In this document: positions 7,594 to 31,562 of the stretch, one piece after another
Layout of the letters: every line of letters starts with the position of its first letter
How positions within the stretch are numbered: position 1 is the first letter of the stretch
Virus record (IMG/VR): IMGVR_UViG_2645727555_000016
Span: 1-31,562 of that record
Length of the DNA stretch: 31,562 nt
Direction: 5' to 3' (one strand)
Origin: a virus
Lineage: Duplodnaviria; Heunggongvirae; Uroviricota; Caudoviricetes
Position numbers and translations under genes: made by a program
The notes under the pieces: model-generated
The model's input: only the letters and a program-made list of their open reading frames with translations
What the model was told of the DNA's origin: nothing
Database searches by the model: none

Positions 7594-10500
7594 ATGTGGT
7601 ACAGGGAAGGTACTATCACATTTACACAGGGTAGCAATACTCTGGTTGGGGCAGGGACAGCCTGGAACGTAACAGCTAATGGTGTGTTGCCGGGGATGAT
7701 CGTCATTGGCCCCGACAATAAGCTGTATGAGATCAAGCGCGTAACAAGCGATACGAATATTGTTCTCTCAGAACCTTATACCGGCGAAACTCAGTCTGAG
7801 GTTCCGTGCCGAATCATTACGACCTATGAAGGCGACTTAACACAGTTTAGCGCGCGCTTTACTGCGCTAATGTCGCGTATGTCGGCTGATTCCAAGTCCA
7901 TGCGCAGTTGGTTGACTACGCTGGATGAGGTGACAATCGAGCGTGAAGACGGTACAGAAGTGACCGTTAAGCCGCTGATACAGATTGTCAACGAGCACAA
8001 CGAAAACGTTGAGTGGTATAAAAATAACACCGACGCGATTGACGCTGCTGGCGACAAAGCTCGTGAGGCGGCGGCCAGTGCTGCCGCAGCAGCAGAAAGC
8101 GCCAATACCGCTGGAGAAAAAGCCTCTCAAGCGTCTCAAAGTGCATCCGCTGCAGAGTCCTCAAAAAGCGCGGCGGCCACCAGTGCCGGTGCCGCGAAAA
8201 CGTCTGAAACGAATGCTGCAGCGTCACAAAAATCTGCAGCCACTTCTGCATCCACCGCGACCACGAAGGCGTCAGAAGCTGCCACCTCAGCCCGGGATGC
8301 GGCGGCCTCAAAAGAGGCAGCGAAATCATCAGAAACGAGCGCAGCCTCGAGCGCCAGTAATGCCGCTTCCTCGGCAACGGCGGCAGGAAATTCCGCGAAG
8401 GCGGCAAAAACGTCCGAGACGAACGCCAGGTCTTCTGAAACGGCAGCGGGACAGAGCGCCTCGGCTGCGGCAGGCTCAAAAACAGCGGCTGCGTCGTCTG
8501 CCAGTGCCGCGTCAACAAGTGCCGGGCAGGCCTCAGCCAGTGCCACCGCCGCCGGAAAATCGGCAGAAAGTGCCGCATCGTCTGCTTCAACAGCCACAAC
8601 GAAGGCTGGCCAAGCCACTGAACAGGCCAGCGCAGCAGCGAGGTCTGCTTCCGCAGCGAAGACATCCGAAACGAACGCGAAAGCGTCGGAAACCAGCGCA
8701 GAATCCTCAAAAACGGCTGCCGCATCGTCAGCCAGTTCGGCGTCGTCATCGGCATCATCTGCGTCTGCTTCAAAAGATGAGGCGACCAGACAGGCGTCAG
8801 CAGCGAAGGGTAGCGCCACGACGGCATCCACGAAGGCGACAGAGGCAGCTGGCAGTGCGACGGCAGCAGCTCAGAGCAAAACTGCTGCTGAATCCGCTGC
8901 GACCCGTGCGGAAGCTGCTGCTGATCGTGCTGAAGAGATTGCCGGTGCAGTTGCGATGGAAGACGCAAGCCTTACAACTAAAGGTGTTGTGAAACTTAGC
9001 AGTGCTGTCGATAGCACCAGCGAATCACTGGCTGCAACTCCAAAGGCAGTTAAAGCTGCGAATGACAATGCGAATAGCCGATTGGCGAAGAGTCAGAATG
9101 GCGCTGATATCCCAGACAAGGGCCGCTTCCTGAGTAACATTAATGTTTACAGCAAAGGTGAAGTGGATAAGAAAAAGGGGATGCGAAAATACACTTTCTC
9201 TGCTCCTGCAAATGCAGTAAGCGGTAAGTGGTATCCTGTAGTCTTTCGCCGAACTGGTGGTGGCACAGATGAATTAGCCTCACGAGTGGTTATCACCACT
9301 TATTCCTCAGCTGGCGGATACGCCATGAATAATTGTGAATTTAATGGGTTTGTTATGCCTGGCGGTTGGTCTGATCGCGGTTCATATGCGGCTGGTTTTT
9401 TCTCAATATATTCTACTGCTGAGCGAGCCATACACTCGATTATCGCAAGCGTGAAAGATGATGATTTGTGTAGTGTATTTTACGTTGAGACAAGAGCATT
9501 CCCTATCCAGATTTTTGCTGAGGAAGGATTAAATGTGATTGTTCCAACGGCTGATTATGCAGTTGGTCAAACCACTTATAAGTGGGGGGCAACTGATCCT
9601 TTATCAGAAAGTACGAATGCACAGATAATTTTGGACTTTAAAAATGGACGAGGTTATTACTGTTCACATCCATTTATTTCAAGTCTTTCAGGAAATGCTG
9701 CTACAGCCACGAAATTGCAGACGGCAAGATCTATCGGTGGAGTTGTTTTCGACGGTTCTGCAAATATTAACCTTCCAGGTGTAAACACTACGGGTAATCA
9801 GAACACCACTGGTAATGCTGCAACTGCTACAAAACTTCAGACGGTAAGAAAAATATCCGGTGTTCCATTTGATGGTTCTACTGATATCACTTTAACCGCT
9901 GCGCATGTTGCCGCTTTCGCAAGAAGGGCAACAGGGTCATATGCGGATGCTGATGGTGGCGTGCCGTGGAATGCTGAATCTGGTGCTTACAATGTAAATA
10001 GAACAGGCGACAGTTATATTCTTGCCAACTTTTATACCGGAGTCGGAAGTTGCCGGACCCTGCAGATGAAGGCGCATTACAGAAATGGTGGTCTGTTCTA
10101 CCGTTCTTCAAGAGATGGCTATGGTTTTGAAAGTGGTTGGGAGCAGGTTTACACGACTGGATTTATGCCTCAGCCGGCTGATATAAACGCGCCAACCGCT
10201 GCCGCTGGATGGTTAAATAGTGGTAACGGAACGGCATTTACGACTGCTCAATTTATAACTTGGCTAAATAATCAGGGGGCATTTACAAACAAACATTGGA
10301 TCGCACGGTGCTCATGGACTTACGCCAACAATAATTATATAGACGACACTGGTTGCGGTAGGATCGATCTATCTGGTTCCGTGATTGAGGTGTTTAGTAA
10401 TAAGGCAACAAGCCACTACACTATTCGTGTTACAACGACAACAACATCGGGTCATGGTGGTGTTAACAATGCGGAATTTATTTATGTGTACAATGGAAGT

Positions 10501-11901
10501 GATTATGCACCAGGCTGGCGTCGTTCTTATAACACTAGAAACAAACCAACAGCTTCTGATGTAGGAGCATTACCGCTTTCAGGTGGCACATTATCTGGAG
10601 GGTTAACGTCTTCTGGTGAGATCGTTTCAAAATATGCAAATGGTTTCCGCATTGCCTACGGAAACTACGGATTCTTTATCCGAAACGATGGTTCAAGCAC
10701 ATACTTCATGTTGACCGATTCGGGTAACAGCCTGGGAACCTATAATAGTTTAAGGCCGCTTATCATTAACAATGCCAATGGTGCTGTTAGGATCGGTAAT
10801 GGACTCAATGTTACTGGCGGCATCAATGGTAGCTTGAACGGTAATGCTTCAACAGCTACGAAGTTGCAAACTGCTAGAAACATCAATGGTGTTAAGTTTG
10901 ATGGCTCAGGCGATATCAACATTAATACATTGGTATCTCGTGGCCGAGTTACGGCGTTAAGCGGCTCTACTCAAGGCACTGCTGGCATTCAAATGTACGA
11001 GGCGTACAACAATAACTACCCGACCATGTATGGCAACGTATTGCACATGAAAGGTGCGAGTGCTGCTGGTGAGGGAGAGTTGCTAATTGGCTGGAGTGGT
11101 ACGAGCGGTGCACATGCGCCAGTTTTCATTCGCTCACGAAGAGATACCGCAGGTTCGGCATGGTCAGCGTGGGCGCAGGTATATACCGCTAAGGATTCAA
11201 TCCCTGGTGTGAATACAACCGGTAATCAGAACACTACTGGTAATGCCGCAACCGCCACAAAATTGCAGACAGCAAGGAAAATTGCTGGTGTGGCGTTTGA
11301 TGGCTCTGCCGATATAACTTTGACTGCGGCTAACCTTAATGCTTACACGAAAACAGAGGTAACAAACCTTCTAAGTTCCTATGCAAGCAGATCATCACTG
11401 ACAGGCTATAGTGGCAACCTGGATATTATTGCTGAAACACTGGTTGTCAAATCAGGCGGTAGTGGAGGGTTTGCTATATGGGATATTGGCACAACTACTA
11501 GCGGTGCCAATATGTACATTGATCCAAACCCAGGTATCAATACAGTTTGGCGTTCAACATCTTCAAGGCGCTATAAAAAGGATATTGAAACATTACAAGA
11601 TCGATATGCTGATGAACTTTTGTCATTAAGACCTGTTTGGTATCGTTCAATTTGTCGAGGTGACCGAAAGGATTGGGGGTATTACGGCCTTATTGCTGAA
11701 GAGGTAGGTGAGATTGCCCCGCAATATGTCCATTGGCGTGAACCAACAAATAATGATTCTCCAGAAGATATTTCCTCAAATGGTATGGTCGCTGAAGGGG
11801 TGATGTATGAGCGTTTGGTTGTACCACTCATTCATCATATTCAGCAATTGACCAAAAGGGTTGAGGAGCTTGAAACGAAGTTAAATTCACCTAAAGAATA
11901 A
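7594..11901 (+). CDS. Side tail fibre protein (Stf-like) with Ala/Ser/Thr-rich low-complexity region, four dispersed tail-fibre repeat motifs and a C-terminal intramolecular chaperone (peptidase S74-like) domain
   Basis: 1435-aa ORF; low-complexity SETNAxAS-type repeats (nt about 8040..8950); motif TTKGVVKLSSAVDSTSESLAATPKAVKAAN; four copies of GNAATATKLQTAR.I.GV.FDGS.DI; C-terminal ...DWGYYGLIAEEVGEIAPQYVHW...ERLVVPLIHHIQQLTKRVEELE (about nt 11520..11901) typical of auto-cleaving chaperone domains. Confidence 0.8.
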   Translation: MWYREGTITFTQGSNTLVGAGTAWNVTANGVLPGMIVIGPDNKLYEIKRVTSDTNIVLSEPYTGETQSEVPCRIITTYEGDLTQFSARFTALMSRMSADSKSMRSWLTTLDEVTIEREDGTEVTVKPLIQIVNEHNENVEWYKNNTDAIDAAGDKAREAAASAAAAAESANTAGEKASQASQSASAAESSKSAAATSAGAAKTSETNAAASQKSAATSASTATTKASEAATSARDAAASKEAAKSSETSAASSASNAASSATAAGNSAKAAKTSETNARSSETAAGQSASAAAGSKTAAASSASAASTSAGQASASATAAGKSAESAASSASTATTKAGQATEQASAAARSASAAKTSETNAKASETSAESSKTAAASSASSASSSASSASASKDEATRQASAAKGSATTASTKATEAAGSATAAAQSKTAAESAATRAEAAADRAEEIAGAVAMEDASLTTKGVVKLSSAVDSTSESLAATPKAVKAANDNANSRLAKSQNGADIPDKGRFLSNINVYSKGEVDKKKGMRKYTFSAPANAVSGKWYPVVFRRTGGGTDELASRVVITTYSSAGGYAMNNCEFNGFVMPGGWSDRGSYAAGFFSIYSTAERAIHSIIASVKDDDLCSVFYVETRAFPIQIFAEEGLNVIVPTADYAVGQTTYKWGATDPLSESTNAQIILDFKNGRGYYCSHPFISSLSGNAATATKLQTARSIGGVVFDGSANINLPGVNTTGNQNTTGNAATATKLQTVRKISGVPFDGSTDITLTAAHVAAFARRATGSYADADGGVPWNAESGAYNVNRTGDSYILANFYTGVGSCRTLQMKAHYRNGGLFYRSSRDGYGFESGWEQVYTTGFMPQPADINAPTAAAGWLNSGNGTAFTTAQFITWLNNQGAFTNKHWIARCSWTYANNNYIDDTGCGRIDLSGSVIEVFSNKATSHYTIRVTTTTTSGHGGVNNAEFIYVYNGSDYAPGWRRSYNTRNKPTASDVGALPLSGGTLSGGLTSSGEIVSKYANGFRIAYGNYGFFIRNDGSSTYFMLTDSGNSLGTYNSLRPLIINNANGAVRIGNGLNVTGGINGSLNGNASTATKLQTARNINGVKFDGSGDININTLVSRGRVTALSGSTQGTAGIQMYEAYNNNYPTMYGNVLHMKGASAAGEGELLIGWSGTSGAHAPVFIRSRRDTAGSAWSAWAQVYTAKDSIPGVNTTGNQNTTGNAATATKLQTARKIAGVAFDGSADITLTAANLNAYTKTEVTNLLSSYASRSSLTGYSGNLDIIAETLVVKSGGSGGFAIWDIGTTTSGANMYIDPNPGINTVWRSTSSRRYKKDIETLQDRYADELLSLRPVWYRSICRGDRKDWGYYGLIAEEVGEIAPQYVHWREPTNNDSPEDISSNGMVAEGVMYERLVVPLIHHIQQLTKRVEELETKLNSPKE

Positions 11902-25641: not shown

Positions 25642-25840
25642 ACGGGAGAAGGAAACGCTTCATGAAATCAGTAAGTGGCCGGAGTTCCCTGAGTACTGGA
25701 AGCCTAAAACGCGAGCTAAGTTAGAGCGTTTAGGGTTGGTTGCAAACGTTTCTGAAACGAAGTGTTCGGCCAACTACCAGTTAACTGATAAAGGGAAAGT
25801 ATTGCTACAGCAATTAGTAGAATCAGGAGCGTTAAAATGA
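25625..25840 (+). CDS. Hypothetical small protein
   Basis: 71-aa ORF; overlapping start and stop with neighbours (translational coupling). Confidence 0.4.
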   Translation: MIVLSKREKETLHEISKWPEFPEYWKPKTRAKLERLGLVANVSETKCSANYQLTDKGKVLLQQLVESGALK

Positions 25841-25989
25841 TTCCATACATCTCATTAGCTTTTATGGGTGGCTTCCTTATTGGCTTCGGCATCTGTCGTG
25901 ATTTAATTAAGCAGGAACTTAAAACCAAAACACTGTGCATCGGAAAGCGTGTGTATCGGGTAGTTCATGAAACAAAGGTTAGAAAATGA
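25837..25989 (+). CDS. Small membrane protein (50 aa), not in the supplied ORF track; paralogue of 25462..25641
   Basis: ATGA overlap with the upstream stop; TM MIPYISLAFMGGFLIGFGI followed by a basic tail. Confidence 0.4.
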   Translation: MIPYISLAFMGGFLIGFGICRDLIKQELKTKTLCIGKRVYRVVHETKVRK

Positions 25990-26276
25990 GCAATTTAACT
26001 TCTTGGGACTGGTGGTTGGCCACCTATTTCTTAGCGGCCGGAGTCGCATTCGCCTTTTACGTAGGTCAGTTAGTCGTAAAACTGTTGCTGATTAAATTTG
26101 CTAGTCATAAACGTATCGATGATGGTCTGTGGCGTCTTGGCACCCTGGTGGAAACTCGCTACGGGCAACTTAAGGAGAACGAAACCATTACTATCCAAGC
26201 GAAACGATTCACTGCCACCATCACAAGAACACCTAGTCGTAGAGTGGCATTGATCAAAAAAGTCACAACCGAATAA
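25986..26276 (+). CDS. Small membrane protein
   Basis: 96 aa; N-terminal TM WWLATYFLAAGVAFAFYVGQLVV; ATGA overlap with the upstream gene. Confidence 0.4.
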   Translation: MSNLTSWDWWLATYFLAAGVAFAFYVGQLVVKLLLIKFASHKRIDDGLWRLGTLVETRYGQLKENETITIQAKRFTATITRTPSRRVALIKKVTTE

Positions 26277-26285
26277 AAATACAAT

Positions 26286-26307
26286 GATAAGTATTTACTT
26301 ACTTATC
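26286..26307. promoter_or_regulatory. Perfect palindrome GATAAGTA-TT-TACTTACTTATC built from the same GATAAGTAAGTA unit as the recurring motif; operator-like
   Basis: The right arm is the reverse complement of GATAAGTAAGTA; lies at the start of a gene-free structured region upstream of the tRNA cluster. Confidence 0.45.
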
Positions 26308-26666
26308 TTTTATGTATAAGATGACTTTGTTTTCGTTGAGACGCGACTGTTTGAACTTAAATACAAGTGCAAACGAAGAAGTCTATCTGGCAGTAGCCTA
26401 ATAAGCCAAACACCAGCGAGGTCAGTTTCCAGCCTCGTTACCGAAATGGGACACACTGAGCGAGTGTGATTGCAGAACGCAGGAGGGAACATTCATGTTC
26501 CCTCTGATGAAGTAACAGAATGGGCGGTCGTTATATTTTCAACTCAATATGACTCCCGGATTCTTAGCCACTGACCGCCCATCCTGTTACGTCATTTTGT
26601 TCAATTATGTCGTTTATACTGGGTTAAAAAGCGGCGGCGTAGCCCGGCTGGTATGGTTAGCCAGCA

Positions 26667-26788
26667 CACAACGTTGAGGCCATTACATTTTTATCAATTC
26701 TAAGGTTCTATTCACAGAGATACCGGCGAGCGTTGATATGTAACATGTTGGGCAAACATTCAATCGGAGTAGTGGCCTCAACGTTGTG
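26667..26788. repeat. Hairpin element A: 16-bp perfect inverted repeat (CACAACGTTGAGGCCA / TGGCCTCAACGTTGTG) flanking about 90 nt
   Basis: Arms 26667..26682 and 26773..26788 are exact reverse complements; arms share CTCAAC..TTGTG with elements B and C. Confidence 0.6.
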
Positions 26789-27052
26789 AAGACAGGATTG
26801 TTGTGTAGGTTTAACCACTGTTGCCATTGGTGCCTGTTTTCACAACAAATGATTCCATACATCACATTGTATAAATTACAAAGTAGGTGCTGTCCTCAGA
26901 AACATCATCTACTTAAAGATTTTGCCTTCTATTGAGCGAAGTCGAAAACGTCTGGCACTAACGAAAAGTGCAAGTAGCGGTGCGTTTATTGGCAAAAACT
27001 AACACCGCCGCGATTGGCACTGTTGAGTAATAAATACTGGCAGTGCTGAATT

Positions 27053-27127
27053 GATGGTGTAGCTCAGCGGTAGAGCAGTTGGCTGTTAACCAACTGGTCG
27101 GTGGTTCGAATCCACCCACCATCGCCA
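27053..27127 (+). tRNA. tRNA-Asn (anticodon GTT)
   Basis: Manual fold: acceptor GATGGTG/CACCATC, D-stem GCTC/GAGC, anticodon stem GTTGG/CCAAC with loop CTGTTAA, T-arm GGTGG-TTCGAAT-CCACC, discriminator G, encoded CCA. Confidence 0.75.
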
Positions 27128-27132
27128 ATTTA

Positions 27133-27219
27133 GGGGAGTTAGTCCGTAGAGGTAGCGGTGTAGACTGTAAATCTACTGTCATGGCGACTCGGGTGGTTCG
27201 ACTCCATCACTCCCCACCA
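27133..27219 (+). tRNA. tRNA-Tyr (anticodon GTA), class II with long variable arm
   Basis: Acceptor GGGGAGT/ACTCCCC, anticodon stem GTAGA/TCTAC with loop CTGTAAA, variable arm with GTC/GAC stem, T-arm GGTGG-TTCGACT-CCATC, encoded CCA; D-arm is non-canonical. Confidence 0.55.
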
Positions 27220-27223
27220 AATT

Positions 27224-27299
27224 GCCGGTTTAGCTCAGTTGGTAGAGCAGTCGCTTTGTAAGCGAATGGCCAGCGGTTCAAGTCCGTTAACCGGCACCA
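27224..27299 (+). tRNA. tRNA-Thr (anticodon TGT)
   Basis: Acceptor GCCGGTT/AACCGGC, D-stem GCTC/GAGC, anticodon stem GTCGC/GCGAA (one mismatch) with loop TTTGTAA, T-arm AGCGG-TTCAAGT-CCGTT, encoded CCA. Confidence 0.7.
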
Positions 27300-27304
27300 A
27301 CATA

Positions 27305-27395
27305 ATATTGAGAACATTGGCGTAACGGGGTCATATCCCAATCTATGAATAAATGTTGCGTTGCCGCGTGACAACCAGTGTTCTCAACATTGTGG
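27305..27395. repeat. Hairpin element B: imperfect inverted repeat (ATATTGAGAACATTGG / CCAGTGTTCTCAACATT) between tRNA-Thr and tRNA-Ser
   Basis: Two mismatches in a 16-17-bp repeat; shares the CTCAAC..TTGTG arm signature with elements A and C. Confidence 0.5.
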
Positions 27396-27494
27396 TGAAT
27401 GCACAGGCTGATGTGCCGCAACTACAGTAGTGCGCGCTTTGCGGGGCTTGCTACAACCCTGTGTCGGAGATCAGCACCGACCACCACAATCACT

Positions 27495-27581
27495 GGAGAG
27501 TAGGGAGCATGGTGCTCAAGCGGTCTTGAAAACCGTCCCATTGCGCAAGCGATGATGGTTCGATTCCATTACTCTCCGCCA
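27495..27581 (+). tRNA. tRNA-Ser (anticodon TGA), class II with long variable arm
   Basis: Acceptor GGAGAGT/ACTCTCC, anticodon stem GCGGT/ACCGT with loop CTTGAAA, long variable arm, T-arm GATGG-TTCGATT-CCATT, discriminator G, encoded CCA; D-arm slightly irregular. Confidence 0.55.
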
Positions 27582-27584
27582 GAC

Positions 27585-27660
27585 ACAGCGTTGAGCGGTT
27601 TGGCCTTTTAATCACCCAGATTAAGACTCCGCTAACATAAACCAGACCGCTCAACGCTGT
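27585..27660. repeat. Hairpin element C: 16-bp perfect inverted repeat (CACAGCGTTGAGCGGT / ACCGCTCAACGCTGTG) immediately 3' of tRNA-Ser
   Basis: Arms 27585..27600 and 27645..27660 are exact reverse complements; same arm signature as elements A and B. Confidence 0.6.
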
Positions 27661-27735
27661 GATAGACAATTACGGCAGACGTTCTTAACCATAGCTTGCT
27701 AACATCCTAGCAACACTTTTTTCAGCGCAAAATTC

Positions 27736-27758
27736 AAAGGGGCTTCGGCCCCTTTTTT
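27736..27758 (+). terminator. Rho-independent terminator (GGGGC-TTCG-GCCCC followed by TTTTTT), likely ending the tRNA transcription unit; A-tract upstream may allow bidirectional use
   Basis: Perfect GC stem with tetraloop and 6-T tract read directly. Confidence 0.7.
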
Positions 27759-27885
27759 ACTGGGTTGACTCCAGAATATTTCCAGGTATGGTTTTACCAC
27801 TTTTGGGTCTTCATTTAGCAACGGCAGCATTAGACTGCCTGCATGTGGGTGACAGGATGTGGCAGAAAAACATGGAGATAAGCCA

Positions 27886-28440
27886 ATGAATAAGCGCAAC
27901 CTCAATATTCTTGCCTCTCTGGTAATCATGCTCGCTCTGACGGGATGTAACGAATCGGAGATCGACAAAATTACCTTAATAGGTAGAGATAAAAGCGATC
28001 TTGCACAGAACTATAAAGCCCAGTTCCAAGAGCAAACACCCAGTATTGAGGTATTCGCTCTTCAAGATAAAAATGCACCGAATGAACAGGAACCACATAC
28101 GCATGGAAATCTCATTGATGGAAAGGTTGAATCGTCTTTAACGACAAATGTCGGTAAGTATACGTTCATGCAGATCGGTGAAATGATGACAAGGGAGTAC
28201 GGAAAACCGGTAGCAACGAAAGACAGAATTTTCGACCAAGAAGCTATCTCAGGTATGGACTGTATTGAGACAAAGACCTGTGGTGCAGGCAAGTATTATG
28301 AAGTCTATCGAGGGAAGGATCGTTTAGTAATGGTGATTAACGGTGCAGGCTTTGTGAACGAAAAAGAGGGTGTAACATTGCTTTCTATCACCGATAAGAT
28401 GATTAAAGTTTCACGCTTGAAAGAAGACAAACGCAAATAG
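27886..28440 (+). CDS. Lipoprotein (secreted or outer-membrane), cargo-like
   Basis: ORF 27859..28440; likely start ATG 27886 after GGAGA; signal peptide plus lipobox MNKRNLNILASLVIMLALTGC. Confidence 0.5.
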   Translation: MNKRNLNILASLVIMLALTGCNESEIDKITLIGRDKSDLAQNYKAQFQEQTPSIEVFALQDKNAPNEQEPHTHGNLIDGKVESSLTTNVGKYTFMQIGEMMTREYGKPVATKDRIFDQEAISGMDCIETKTCGAGKYYEVYRGKDRLVMVINGAGFVNEKEGVTLLSITDKMIKVSRLKEDKRK

Positions 28441-28454
28441 CAAATAGCCATAGA

Positions 28455-28982
28455 TTGTTTAACACTGCGAGGTTAAATGTGAGTAACAGAGATGATTTTT
28501 CCCCATCGGTGAAGCGAACACTAGCCGAACGCGTAGGCTGGAAGTGCTCTTATCCTAGCTGCAACCAGACAACTGTAGGTCCAGATAGCAGCAATACAAA
28601 CGGCAGGATTAATAATGGTATTGCGGCCCATATTACAGCAGCAGCGCCAGGTGGACCGAGATATGATCATAGCTTAACCCCAGAACAGCGAAGCTCGATT
28701 GATAACGGTATATGGATGTGTCGTTCACATGCCGCACTCATTGATTCTGACAAATATGCCTATTCCGTTGAGCAATTAAAAAACTGGAAGACACTGGCCG
28801 AAACTCAGCAATCTTTACTGCTTCAAATGGCGCACCAGGTGAGCCAGAATAATTACTCAGAAAGAGACGTCGATGTTCTAAAAGCTATTACTGATATTTT
28901 TAATTATAACTACCTCCAAATGCTGAAGAGCGAACCGTTCCGGGCAAAAGGTTCATGGTTAACCAACTGGTCAACCCTCTAA
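28455..28982 (+). CDS. HNH/His-Me-finger-like protein candidate (start uncertain; ORF track start is TTG)
   Basis: Cys pair CSYPSC, then AAHITAA and NGIWMCRSHAALID, resembling a C-x-C...H...N...H nuclease arrangement; 3' end overlaps the recombinase ORF. Confidence 0.3.
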   Translation: MFNTARLNVSNRDDFSPSVKRTLAERVGWKCSYPSCNQTTVGPDSSNTNGRINNGIAAHITAAAPGGPRYDHSLTPEQRSSIDNGIWMCRSHAALIDSDKYAYSVEQLKNWKTLAETQQSLLLQMAHQVSQNNYSERDVDVLKAITDIFNYNYLQMLKSEPFRAKGSWLTNWSTL

Positions 28983-29797
28983 TATTGGATGGCAAAATTG
29001 TTATGGGCCGCCGCGTTTTCTCTCTGATGAAGCAGTTCCTTAGCTGGTGCGCCTTCCAGGGGATGATAGACGTGTCACCGTTAAACGATATGTCACTAAA
29101 CAAAGTTGCCGGTGGCGCAAAGCCCACACCTCGCGAGCGGAAGCTGACCGACGCAGAGGTATGGGTGTTCTGGAATATATGGGACTACTTCAATGTGTGC
29201 GCTGGTACAAAATGGGCGGCCAGGCTGTGTCTTGTATCAGCAAGACGACCTGACGAAGTACTGCGGGCTAAAAAAAGTGAGTTCAATCTTAAGCGTGGGG
29301 TTTGGAATCAAGGCAAAAGAAACAAGTCAGCACGTGAGCATTCGCTGCCTTTAAGCACATTAATGCGCACATGCATTGAAGAGTTGTTCGAATACGGTAA
29401 AGACAGCCAGTGGCTCGTGCCTTCGAATAAAAAAATCGGGAAAGACCTTCCTATGTCTAAAGTGGCAATATCCCAGGCATTACGTCGTATTCTGGAACGA
29501 CCAGAACTGATGGAGCTTGAGCCATTTACACCCCGAGATTTGCGCCGTACTGCGCGTAGTTACTTCCCAGCATTAGGCATAAGCCAGGAGGTATCACGCA
29601 AAATTATGAACCACAGTCTTGAGGGGATAGATCGGGTCTACGACCGGCACGATTATATGGACGAGATGCGAGACGCCTTAGAAAGTTTCTCGACGTACAT
29701 CGCATCAATCGTAGAGCAACCGGATTTAGACGAAATTGACCACAAATTCAAGGGAGATCGTCTATCAACAGAGCTTATTCGTGTAAATTTTTCATAG
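28955..29797 (+). pseudogene. P4-type tyrosine recombinase/integrase, N-terminally truncated (catalytic domain only); probable remnant
   Basis: C-terminal signature PFTPRDLRRTARSY...IMNHSLEGIDRVYDRHDY resembles P4-family integrase boxes (R...HxLRRT...H...Y), but Arg replaces the usual His in HDLRR and the roughly 100-150-aa N-terminal arm-binding region is absent. Confidence 0.55.
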
Positions 29798-30178
29798 AGA
29801 CTTTATGGCCTCAACAACCTTTTGTGATGCGCCTTTCTCTTTACCGAATCGCTCGTTATATGCAGCAAGAACCTGTTTTTCGTCCTCGTTAAGAGGAGCG
29901 GTGCCTTCTTTGTATAAAAATGCTGCGAGTTCAGGTTGGCGTTCTTCCAGCACCATCATCATTAGACGACTTGGCTCAATACCCAGCGCCAGCGCCAACG
30001 GACGAACCTTATCGATAGGCAAAGGAATTTTGCCACTTTTAATTAAAGAAAGGTTGTTGGCATTTTTATAACCAATAAGTCTGGCTATTTGGGCCTGACT
30101 CATAGGTGAGGATTCAATCAGCCCTGCGATAAAAGCAGCATAGCGACTTTCTATAAATTCAATCTTGTTGTCAGACAT
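29792..30178 (-). CDS. XRE-family helix-turn-helix transcriptional regulator (Cro/CI-like)
   Basis: HTH segment SQAQIARLIGYKNANNLSLIKSG near the N-terminus; 128 aa; divergently oriented to downstream + strand genes, with a palindrome in its upstream region. Confidence 0.6.
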   Translation of the reverse strand: MSDNKIEFIESRYAAFIAGLIESSPMSQAQIARLIGYKNANNLSLIKSGKIPLPIDKVRPLALALGIEPSRLMMMVLEERQPELAAFLYKEGTAPLNEDEKQVLAAYNERFGKEKGASQKVVEAIKSL

Positions 30179-30209
30179 TGTTACAACCTTTGCGCGTTTA
30201 ATTCTCTCT

Positions 30210-30223
30210 GGTAAGTGCTTACC
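30210..30223. promoter_or_regulatory. Palindromic operator candidate GGTAAG-TG-CTTACC, 32 bp upstream of the XRE regulator start
   Basis: Perfect 6-bp inverted repeat; the GGTAAGT half-site matches the core of the recurring motif. Confidence 0.4.
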
Positions 30224-30428
30224 GATATTACATCAAAGGTTAGGGTTGTAAAGCTATTATCATTTTTTCGGCAGGCACTTGTAAGACCGAGCAAAGGTCC
30301 ATGCATGGAGAAAAACTAGCCCAAAATAGGTAAGAAAATTAACTTGCATCTGATATAGATGCATTCAGTATTGATACAAATTTTAGTAGTATTCCTTACC
30401 ATAGTATAAGTTAGAATGGATTGATTGA

Positions 30429-30641
30429 ATGAAAACCACTATTTCCAACCTAATCGCTCTTGAGATCGGACACGTACAGAAATTAGCTGATGAGTGTGTA
30501 GCTGACATCCTCACCGATCTACCGAATGAGCAGATTCAGGTTGGTGTGAATGACACAACTGGCTTTATATTCGAACTTAACAACAAACGCTTCACGCTTC
30601 TCAATACCGGCTCCGGGTCTTTAGCCGTCAGAATCTGTTAA
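30429..30641 (+). CDS. Hypothetical small protein
   Basis: 70-aa ORF downstream of the divergent regulatory region; followed by 9-bp inverted repeat CTGCGCGAA / TTCGCGCAG. Confidence 0.35.
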   Translation: MKTTISNLIALEIGHVQKLADECVADILTDLPNEQIQVGVNDTTGFIFELNNKRFTLLNTGSGSLAVRIC

Positions 30642-30739
30642 CCCCTCTTCTCCCTGCGCGAATGGCTTAGTTCCCTGTTCGCGCAGTGCTACATTAAACA
30701 CACTAGTAAATAATTTGTTTTCATAACAAAGGATTAGCC

Positions 30740-31510
30740 ATGTCTAAAAAACGTTCCATCAAAGAGGTTCAGGACTTCCGTGACAGTGTAAAACGAGTAG
30801 TCGCTCTCCTTTCAGGTAAAAACATCCCTGTTGCAGAACGAGGGGACGACGCTTATGTACGCTATAGCGATGATGGAGAGCCAATTCTCGTAAACATCCC
30901 ATCAATCCCGGATAACGCAACACCGGCATTGATGAATGCTGTGCGCGGATTTCTCGATCATGAGGTTGCTCACATTTTGTTTACCGATATTCGTGTGTCC
31001 AACAAAATGAGAGAAAAAGGACGCGTTCCTTCCTGGTCACTATGGAATGCCTTAGAAGACGTGTTCATCGAGCGAAAAATGGGGCAGGTCTTTAACGGAA
31101 CGAGACGTAATCTGATGGCAACTCAGCGCCTTATAATCGAAAAAGTCTTTAAACCAAAGGCTTCAGAGGCTATTGCTTATTGTGGCAAAGATCAGCGCGC
31201 GCTTTTTCTAAACTTCTTTCTCTGTCCGGTTGCAAGAGCCTGGGATGGCCAAGCACCGTTCGTAGATTTCATGGATGAATACTGGCCTGTCATTGAGAAA
31301 CCAATTTCATTATTAAAAGAACATGGTATCGATGTGGCCGTGCGTAACATGTCTTGCACCGAGGATTGTGTAAAGGTGGCTGCGACCATAGCTAAGATCC
31401 TCAAAGACACTGAAAGTGAAAGCAAAGGTAAGGAGTCAGCTCCGGGAAAAACTTCCGATCCTTCAGACGCTGAACCGCCCCGGGTTTCCTGGAGAGTGTT
31501 TTATCTGTGA
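30740..31510 (+). CDS. Hypothetical protein with HExxH motif (possible zinc metallopeptidase-like); last 41 nt lie inside the terminal inverted repeat
   Basis: Motif DHEVAHILFTD contains HEVAH; RBS AAGGA upstream; 256 aa. Confidence 0.4.
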   Translation: MSKKRSIKEVQDFRDSVKRVVALLSGKNIPVAERGDDAYVRYSDDGEPILVNIPSIPDNATPALMNAVRGFLDHEVAHILFTDIRVSNKMREKGRVPSWSLWNALEDVFIERKMGQVFNGTRRNLMATQRLIIEKVFKPKASEAIAYCGKDQRALFLNFFLCPVARAWDGQAPFVDFMDEYWPVIEKPISLLKEHGIDVAVRNMSCTEDCVKVAATIAKILKDTESESKGKESAPGKTSDPSDAEPPRVSWRVFYL

Positions 31511-31562
31511 ACTCAGGCTGCCAGATCATCGTTTCCGATGGAAGCATAATAAGCTTTTTCTG
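31470..31562. repeat. Right copy of the 93-bp perfect terminal inverted repeat (reverse complement of 2..94)
   Basis: Manual reverse-complement comparison; see the left copy. Confidence 0.85.

Follow-up and report, generated by a model that had tools for sequence, protein, structure and literature searches.

Introduction

Tyrosine recombinases that resolve plasmid multimers include XerCD acting at cer/psi and ResD acting at rfsF of F. Phage P1, which is maintained as a plasmid prophage, uses Cre to resolve its multimers (PMC7969092). In the SSU5 supergroup of phage-plasmids, tyrosine recombinases likewise belong to the persistent genes (PMC7969092). One of its representatives, Cyrano (identical to pLF82), has a copy number of about 5.5 per cell, produces virions, and can be induced by ciprofloxacin (PMC9928086). 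Here we analyse a viral contig of 31,562 nucleotides (IMG/VR record IMGVR_UViG_2645727555_000016; the whole stretch is called the window below) and in particular the truncated tyrosine recombinase gene located downstream of its tRNA genes. An original prediction had interpreted this region as a degenerate integration module. Our analysis leads to a different view, which as a whole is likely to be correct: the region is the lysogeny/accessory segment of an SSU5-type phage-plasmid that has suffered a recent 1,262-bp deletion, and the recombinase affected by it would normally function in multimer resolution.

The window is part of an SSU5-type phage-plasmid

The window aligns at 94-99% nucleotide identity with non-mobilizable plasmids of about 110 kb from E. 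coli, Shigella, and E. fergusonii, and at the same level with the Escherichia phages CMS-2020a and Cyrano. This similarity extends over most of positions 94-31473, in which a few segments are replaced. The plasmid NZ_LR882992.1 from enterotoxigenic E. coli matches most of the same interval, the limits of which are the end of the tape-measure gene and cobT. The order of tRNAs, cargo genes, recombinase (int), XRE regulator, orf70, and cobT is the same in more than 200 related plasmids. The arrangement common to the relatives from E. coli, Citrobacter, Nissabacter, Klebsiella, Xenorhabdus, and Providencia is ligase, small open reading frames (ORFs), tRNAs, cargo, int, XRE, orf70, cobT, AAA ATPase, and dnaE. 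As in Cyrano and NZ_LR882992.1, the tail genes of the window precede this series. Judged by identity and gene order, the window represents a section of an SSU5/pHCM2-type (pSLy3-like) phage-plasmid, and the assumption of the original prediction that the phage is maintained as a plasmid was correct.

We subsequently determined the presence of the individual genes in 80 related loci on IMG/VR viral contigs, counting within 3 kb upstream of int. The genes for the recombinase and the XRE regulator were found in all 80 loci and orf70 in 79, compared with 61 for grxA, nine for the lipoprotein gene, and eight for the HNH gene. Because of these counts, we regard int, XRE, and orf70 as backbone, and the lipoprotein and HNH genes as sporadic cargo. 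An undamaged segment is arranged as tRNA cluster, variable cargo, grxA, a lox-like palindrome of about 33 bp, the 367-aa recombinase, a convergent XRE repressor, orf70, and cobT. By its gene content, the region is a cargo hotspot within the phage-plasmid and not an island that has entered at a tRNA of the host. The description as an "integration-module-like island" does not fit a region that is collinear with related phage-plasmids.

A single deletion has truncated two genes of the window

What distinguishes the window from the other SSU5/pHCM2/pSLy3-type phage-plasmids is a private deletion (HNH' - delta grxA - delta site - 'int), together with IS3-family insertions in cobT and the tape-measure gene. 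In BLAST comparisons with the related locus L001, window positions 26001-28950 correspond to L001 702-3646 and positions 28946-31473 to L001 4909-7436. The features concerned are:

28949/28950: deletion junction, 1,262 bp lost relative to L001 3647-4908 (BLAST against L001 and reading of the junction)
28479-28982, plus strand: 3'-truncated HNH-nuclease gene, ORF opening at TTG 28455 (compared with L001 3175-3963; PHROG 21516, unknown function)
28955-29797, plus strand: tyrosine-recombinase remnant, 280 aa, residues 88-367 of the 367-aa family protein (PF00589; alignment A2)

At the junction, CGGGCAAAAG is directly followed by GTTCATGG, and the microhomology is restricted to the 2 nt AG (AAxAG; four of five positions). 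The lost DNA comprises the last 105 codons of the 262-aa HNH protein, the whole of grxA, the 210 bp in front of int, and the first 87 codons of int itself, and it also contained the palindromic lox-like site described below. It was not found elsewhere in the window. The junction itself was found neither in 72,556 plasmids nor in 5,426 complete E. coli genomes or IMG/VR (no match to a 20-mer), and int is full length in all 80 IMG/VR loci. A single match of the junction 20-mer in GTDB, in a metagenome-assembled genome of the Bacteroidales (L003), was attributed to chance: this genome shares nothing else with the window, and about one such match is expected in 596 Gb.

The remnant is 100% identical to residues 88-367 of P0002 (alignment A2), a full-length 367-aa protein that stands for 615 database sequences. 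Compared with L001, it shows 18 nucleotide differences, 14 of them at third codon positions, and no stop codons. Because of the identity with P0002 and the mostly third-position, stop-free differences to L001, we consider the deletion to be recent. From the sequence comparisons, it is a single, recent, illegitimate event with 2-nt microhomology that is private to the window. It joined the middle of the HNH gene to recombinase codon 88 in a different reading frame, thereby taking away the C-terminal domain of the HNH protein, grxA, the promoter region of the recombinase gene, the palindromic site, and the first 87 residues of the enzyme. The two ORFs overlap by 28 nt in different reading frames because of this out-of-frame fusion. 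The overlap had already been noticed in the original prediction, which proposed that the HNH ORF had displaced the start of the recombinase gene; the overlap was confirmed, and the displacement was not, as both genes were clipped by one and the same deletion. The proposed N-terminal truncation of the recombinase was borne out as well: the homologues at the same position have a length of 367 aa, and their internal Met88 is the first residue of the window ORF. The apparent integration scar is a private deletion in a well-known phage-plasmid family, and the gene is an ordinary recent pseudogene.

The recombinase belongs to a clade without arm-binding domain

The window ORF reaches 41.3 bits against PF00589 (cut-off 27.1 bits) and a full-length relative 39.8 bits, which places them in the tyrosine recombinase superfamily. 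The catalytic domain is intact in the window, with ARRPDE at 29240, the Lys of RNKSAR at 29318, RDLRR at 29534-29548, NHS at 29606, and the presumed Tyr within RVYDRHDY at 29633. Of the catalytic residues R-K-H-R-H/W-Y, R185, K211, R284, and Y316 are invariant in alignment A2, and H307 is found in most sequences and replaced by Gln in P0016 and P0020. The position of the first catalytic His is occupied by Arg (R281) in 13 of 13 aligned clade members. All of them (43-100% identity) contain RDLRRT, and HDLRRT is restricted to three homologues with an arm domain. According to this alignment, RDLRR is a trait of the clade and not decay. The motif had been correctly recognized in the original prediction, and its interpretation as a sign of degeneration has to be abandoned.

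Homologues with complete ends have a length of about 340-380 aa, and most are encoded on Enterobacterales contigs of roughly 100-115 kb. The arm-binding domain PF13356 (DUF4102) is missing in the 367-aa relatives and was detected only in homologues of 360-464 aa with 28-34% identity. The NCBIfam model for P4-type integrases, PRK09692, gave 33.1 bits relative to a cut-off of 434, with a match starting only at position 137 of 413. In an AF2 model of a full-length relative (pLDDT 80.5), the N-terminus contains short helices, residues 42-121 form a core-binding domain of four helices, and the catalytic domain follows. Among solved folds, the model agrees best with lambda Int 75-356, a segment that does not include the arm domain of lambda Int. 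A sequence search of the PDB did not yield any match at E <= 1. An N-terminal domain in the sense of a P4 arm domain was therefore not lost in the window, since the intact family members already do without PF13356. Based on the model, the window remnant is devoid of the N-terminal helices and of helices one and two of the core-binding domain, which amount to half of this domain.

P4-type integrases (CP4-57/IntS-like, PRK09692) are nevertheless the best-scoring named family. They share the DLRRT and YDRHDY motifs with the clade, and the distant homologues with 28-34% identity are of this type. The clade differs from them by the missing PF13356, RDLRR instead of HDLRR, its occurrence on plasmids only, and a palindromic site that is not derived from a tRNA. 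The remnant can presumably no longer recombine DNA, because it is a promoter-less fragment without a full cognate site in the window. The gene is a truncated copy that is predicted to be inactive. Its description as truncated and retired holds: the 5' end was lost by the deletion, and with it the site and half of the core-binding domain.

A lox-like palindrome is located upstream of the recombinase gene

Upstream of int, inverted arms of 11-14 nt, perfect or near-perfect, surround a 7-nt spacer in 91 of 91 loci, including those on non-phage plasmids (detected with a palindrome scorer, plus direct sequence search for two loci). The distance to the ATG of int is 48-173 nt in most loci, typically about 130 nt, and about 2 kb in L088. 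In the elements from E. coli, Salmonella, Citrobacter, and Klebsiella and those of the Nissabacter type, the arms read (A)ATGATTCCATAC / GTATGGAATCAT(T). In the group of Xenorhabdus, Providencia, Rahnella, Pantoea, and Erwinia they read TGACTCCAGAC / GTCTGGAGTCA, and the Photorhabdus copy is imperfect. The arms are constant inside each clade and change symmetrically between the clades (TGATTCCATAC vs TGACTCCAGAC). The spacer lacks symmetry and varies: 13 versions were counted, and some of these, several in number, are reverse complements of each other. With the spacer CTACTAT, the site of about 33 bp takes the form AATGATTCCATAC-CTACTAT-GTATGGAATCATT. A 40-bp version was found in 252 E. coli genomes, one per plasmid, and never on a chromosome (5,426 complete genomes). 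In loci L017-L101, the spacer varies even between elements with 98-99% identical recombinases (CTACTAT, TCCTTAG, TCTTTAG, TTAATAG, and others) and occurs in both orientations relative to int.

By analogy, the architecture of the palindrome is like that of loxP, FRT, or dif. The intact relatives combine a recombinase of core-binding and catalytic domains only with a site of the Cre/lox kind, inverted arms around a 6-8-bp asymmetric spacer next to the gene (91 of 91 loci). In the window, half of the core-binding domain is gone, and a full palindromic site is absent because it lies inside the deletion. It has been reported that targets predicted from palindromes next to Cre-type recombinase genes worked in about half of the tested cases (PMC10250229). 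Searching the literature for the arm sequences yielded only unrelated primers. No description of the palindromic site was found in publications on SSU5 recombinases or resolution, in a search that was not exhaustive for plasmid-prophage diversity.

Two further explanations for the palindrome were considered and rejected. A function as RNA hairpin or terminator does not agree with the missing T-run, the differing strands of the upstream genes, the invariant arms, and the variable spacer. Turnover of cargo genes by crossover in the spacer would not account for the observation that relatives cease to be similar about 25 nt upstream of the palindrome and not within it.

In addition to the full sites, isolated copies of one arm were observed, two of them in the window:

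25837-25848, plus strand: isolated exact arm copy ATGATTCCATAC at the start of a small ORF (MIPYIS...) (exact sequence match)
26849-26860, plus strand: second isolated exact arm copy ATGATTCCATAC, about 200 nt upstream of the tRNA cluster (exact sequence match)

A third is located in dnaE of NZ_LR882992.1, at position 11717 of the record. By chance, 0.02 exact copies are expected per 109 kb, and the copies are conserved in distant relatives. They are always followed by AT(C/T), often with ...TTAG, and several are found at the ATG that opens a short ORF (MIPYIS...). The variable cargo region lies between them and the full site. In many relatives, the 11-mer arm is also found inside int, on the other strand, in the codons for the conserved VWNQG (for example L055 at 3607, minus strand, and L005 at 10607). 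This copy is degenerate in the window (29300-29311) and may be a coincidence or an autoregulatory site.

Multimer resolution or integration

The 5' segment of int was found at 232 places in the 5,426 complete E. coli genomes, all of them on plasmids and none chromosomal. Homologues with 45-50% identity stand alone, without phage genes nearby, on contigs of 723 kb from Rahnella victoriana, 508 kb from Pantoea vagans, and 437-459 kb from the Erwinia group. The first two are complete records with CP accessions. In the Rahnella locus, the only one scanned, no tRNA genes were detected next to the homologue. Judging by their sizes and accession types, we take these contigs to be secondary replicons or megaplasmids. 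A Photorhabdus plasmid of 33.8 kb has the homologue between parA/toxin-antitoxin genes and the gene for a Rep3 initiator.

Based on this distribution and on the architecture of protein and site, we lean, if only slightly, towards a function of the intact recombinase in the resolution of plasmid multimers, similar to Cre/lox. A two-domain enzyme in the style of Cre or Xer would act on the single palindrome beside its gene and thereby resolve multimers, and it may also cyclise incoming phage DNA. Cre/loxP of P1, Dre/rox, VCre, and Vika resemble this arrangement in their two-domain recombinases without arm-binding domain and the one palindromic site per plasmid next to the gene, and in the case of P1 the host replicon is likewise a plasmid prophage. 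In contrast to Cre, the clade has a 7-bp instead of an 8-bp spacer, arms of 11-14 bp, and Arg in place of the first His of HxxR, and in the window the site is deleted. Sequence similarity to Cre is not detectable, and Cre chains rank 32nd and below in the fold search. The same role as proposed here is performed by XerCD at cer/psi and ResD at rfsF, and the site of the clade lies next to the gene on low-copy replicons, in one homologue close to par and rep. Unlike for XerCD/ResD, no accessory-sequence architecture was identified at the site of the clade, and the relationship to these enzymes was compared at the superfamily level.

Whether clade and palindrome together represent a new, self-contained Cre/lox-like system is in our view an even call. 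Such a system would be distributed over Enterobacterales phage-plasmids, small plasmids, and the plasmid-like contigs of 437-723 kb. It would have been derived from P4-type integrases by loss of the arm domain and replacement of the first catalytic His by Arg, with diverse heterospecific spacers, and the window would be a natural knockout. SSU5-type phage-plasmids are vehicles of resistance and virulence cargo in E. coli, Shigella, Salmonella, and Klebsiella, and the enzyme for which hundreds of them have the annotation "integrase" is probably a lox-type resolvase with a 33-bp site. If true, this would offer a testable handle on monomer segregation of low-copy elements, and the recombinase and its site, of which natural spacer variants exist, could represent a new orthogonal pair.

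A number of observations weigh against a deleted resolution system as outlined above. The recombinase gene adjoins a putative repressor gene, as integrase genes do in lysogeny modules, and the sequence of its catalytic domain is closest to P4-type integrases. A simple lox model does not account for the isolated arm copies, two of which lie in the window, and the palindrome could be an autoregulatory operator only. Moreover, our view is confined to a contig of 31.5 kb that is bounded by insertion sequences (ISs), and the contig sequence is the sole basis for the deletion, which could in principle be an assembly error, unlikely as this is.

Alternative explanations

The alternative that fares best, albeit an improbable one, is that the recombinases of this family are true integrases, the palindrome being attP, and that the window contains an inactivated copy of a retired integration module. 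The lambda-Int/P4-like fold and sequence and the adjoining putative repressor gene agree with this explanation, as do some relatives that are found within plasmids of 150-198 kb, possibly as cointegrates. But an arm-binding domain is missing, no excisionase is annotated beside int in related loci, and int and its site occur at no chromosomal place in the 5,426 E. coli genomes. Because of the latter, there is no attB-like partner. The single homologues on large non-phage contigs and next to par/rep genes on a small plasmid likewise argue against integration. From the retired integration module in a plasmid phage that had been suggested originally, we therefore retain that the gene is retired and plasmid-borne, but it was probably never an integrase gene.

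We consider it quite unlikely that the 1,262-bp gap is a mis-join of short reads and that the source plasmid has intact HNH, grxA, and int genes. Such an artefact would be compatible with the uniqueness of the junction across the searched collections and with the IS copies at the contig ends, which are typical of short-read assemblies. However, mis-joins usually occur at repeats, and here the two sides share only 2 nt (four of five positions). Furthermore, the deleted DNA is not present elsewhere in the contig, and the element has other real lesions, namely the IS insertions in cobT and the tape-measure gene.

A decayed element that was integrated at the 3' end of tRNA-Ser or tRNA-Thr by a P4-type integrase, the central claim of the original prediction, is very unlikely. 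The genes in question do follow directly downstream of tRNA genes, P4-type integrases are the nearest named recombinase family, and the lipoprotein and HNH genes occur sporadically, as cargo of about 10% of the relatives. But the entire segment is collinear with related phage-plasmids, which have intact homologues in this place, the backbone includes int, XRE, and orf70 (80, 80, and 79 of 80 loci), and the tRNA genes are the phage-plasmid's own. Repeats of tRNA-Thr, tRNA-Ser, and tRNA-Tyr elsewhere in the window are at most 10-13 nt long when exact, the same as for random 95-mers, and those of the tRNA-Thr and tRNA-Ser 3' ends (at most 11-13 nt) fall into this range. The direct repeats postulated on the basis of tRNA integration were thus not found beyond chance, and int and its site are never chromosomal (0 copies in 5,426 E. 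coli genomes). The general rule that P4-type integrases target tRNA 3' ends does not apply to a recombinase without arm domain that reaches 33 of the required 434 bits, is restricted to plasmids, and is associated with a lox-like palindrome.

Finally, the idea that the 280-aa ORF is a naturally short, active enzyme with its own start is barely credible: in spite of the open frame, the intact catalytic domain, and an AAGG motif 3 nt upstream of the ATG, no family member with complete ends has about 280 aa (shorter entries being partial, on short contigs, or half-proteins), the ATG is the internal Met88 of identical full-length proteins, and the ORF is without its cognate site and half of the core-binding domain.

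tRNA cluster and its flanks

The tRNA cluster and the terminator that had been described upstream of the region were confirmed, and the cluster contains four genes:

27053-27127, plus strand: tRNA-Asn (ARAGORN, Rfam)
27133-27219, plus strand: tRNA-Tyr (ARAGORN, Rfam)
27224-27299, plus strand: tRNA-Thr (ARAGORN, Rfam)
27495-27581, plus strand: tRNA-Ser (ARAGORN, Rfam)
27739-27758, plus strand: intrinsic terminator after the tRNA cluster, GGGGCTTCGGCCCC (GGGGC-TTCG-GCCCC), then T6 (read directly from the sequence; absent from the list of the consensus scan)
27765-27792, plus strand: sigma-70-like promoter match ahead of the cargo genes, TTGACT-16 nt-TATGGT (consensus scan, nine of 12 positions; a consensus match only)

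The set of tRNA genes is variable among relatives, with four in L001 (the same cluster), three in Cyrano, and one in a Citrobacter plasmid; the genes are the phage-plasmid's own cluster.

One exact direct repeat of 15 nt, GTTAACCAACTGGTC, was detected between the anticodon arm of tRNA-Asn (27085-27099) and int codons 89-93 (28958-28972), 8 nt from the deletion junction. A repeat of this length was not obtained in any of 100 random controls (estimated p of about 0.02). We nevertheless judged it to be a chance match and not an att repeat, as it lies within the conserved coding sequence for VNQLV and is found at 14 of 15 positions in L001, with a synonymous GTG. The host tRNA-Asn presumably differs from this 15-mer. 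The repeat has no role in the end-points of the deletion.

Three long inverted repeats that can form hairpins bracket the tRNA genes (26667-26788, 27298-27397, and 27584-27661). Their arms are related (CACAACGTTGAGGCC..., CAACATAATATTGAGAAC..., and CACAGCGTTGAGCGG...), and possibly they serve the processing or the structure of the tRNA operon. Between tRNA-Thr and tRNA-Ser, the spacer (27284-27488) is 94% identical to phage P1 DNA under the plp/upl genes, which suggests that DNA of the tRNA region was exchanged between P1-type and SSU5-type phage-plasmids. Upstream of the cluster (26350-26452), a weak tRNA-like/tmRNA-like Rfam match was obtained (17 bits, E = 0.025), which is far under the gathering score and probably noise.

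Cargo genes, regulator, and orf70

The following genes and signals accompany the recombinase remnant:

27886-28440, plus strand: lipoprotein gene, 184 aa, intact, lipobox LTGC (PHROG 15156 at 6.4e-114; same length as L001 WP_001042621)
29792-30178, minus strand: XRE-family regulator gene, 128 aa, intact (PHROG 8 at 6.6e-12; at the position of Cyrano CYRAN_45)
30225-30285, minus strand: two promoter-like matches upstream of the XRE gene (consensus scan, consensus matches only)
30429-30641, plus strand: orf70, conserved 70-aa backbone ORF (PHROG 2627 at 2.7e-41)

The lipoprotein gene had been classified as cargo-like, in agreement with its presence in nine of the 80 related loci. The prediction of an HNH-like ORF was also correct. 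Its motif is kept in the window (CxxC at 28545, AHI at 28626, and NGIWMCRSH at 28704), and the tail, the last 105 of 262 codons, is replaced by ten out-of-frame codons (GSWLTNWSTL). On the window ORF, Pfam HNH_2 stays below threshold (E = 0.064), and for the lipoprotein ORF, too, Pfam gave no match above threshold. The intact 262-aa relative matches the PADLOC model PDC-M68A at 5.9e-25 and CBASS/SAVED-HNH and SduA models down to 1e-16. The HNH effector models and the Cys/His/Asn motif assign it to the HNH domain profile; PDC-M68A is matched only at positions 4-125 of 253 and not over its full length. The likeness to PDC-M68A and the CBASS/Shedu HNH effectors comprises the N-terminal 125 residues or so of the intact protein. 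Its C-terminal half, in contrast, is unmatched, and the window copy lacks the last 105 residues. Judging from these profile matches, a role in defence would be a guess. In the Klebsiella relative L098 (4422-4667), a gene of the Acb2/Tad1-hairpin family (anti-CBASS/anti-Thoeris-like) occupies the cargo slot and adjoins grxA. Other relatives have Ail/Lom, PhoH, or Gp49 genes upstream of int. The slot seems to collect defence and counter-defence genes.

The CYRAN_45 protein of Cyrano is a putative prophage repressor that is expressed in lysogeny (PMC9928086). On the XRE ORF of the window, the Pfam HTH_19 match is below the cut-off. Contrary to its original description as divergent, the XRE gene is convergent with the recombinase gene, and their 3' ends overlap by 6 nt. 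It is divergent only from orf70 and cobT, and the two promoter-like matches are located in the 250-bp divergent region between the XRE gene and orf70.

IS insertions and state of the element

Both ends of the window are formed by the same 92 nt in inverted orientation (positions 2-93 and 31471-31562, identical as reverse complements). The features at the right end are:

30740-31470, plus strand: 5' third of cobT, interrupted by an IS after codon 244; intact relatives have 702 aa (Pfam CobT at 3e-22; similarity to L001 ends at 31473)
31471-31562, plus strand: IS3-family insertion-sequence end (TGAACCGCCCCGGG...; also TGAACCGCCCCGGGTTTCC...), inverted copy at 2-93

Matches to the 92-nt IS end, located in IS3-family transposase regions, were found in 4,122 of the 5,426 E. 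coli genomes. The copy at positions 2-93 breaks the tape-measure gene about 137 nt before its stop codon, so that inverted IS copies flank the entire 31.4-kb segment. With the int deletion and the two IS insertions, there are three independent lesions in 31 kb. Therefore, this copy is probably a defective or rearranged phage-plasmid, or a fragment of one. These lesions mark it as decaying towards a plain plasmid or fragment.

At positions 8001-9000 and 9078-10468, the 1,435-aa tail-fibre ORF includes a GC-rich stretch (0.60, compared with about 0.46 elsewhere), with long overlapping ORFs on both strands. The similarity to the reference plasmid breaks just after this stretch. It looks like a mosaic host-range region.

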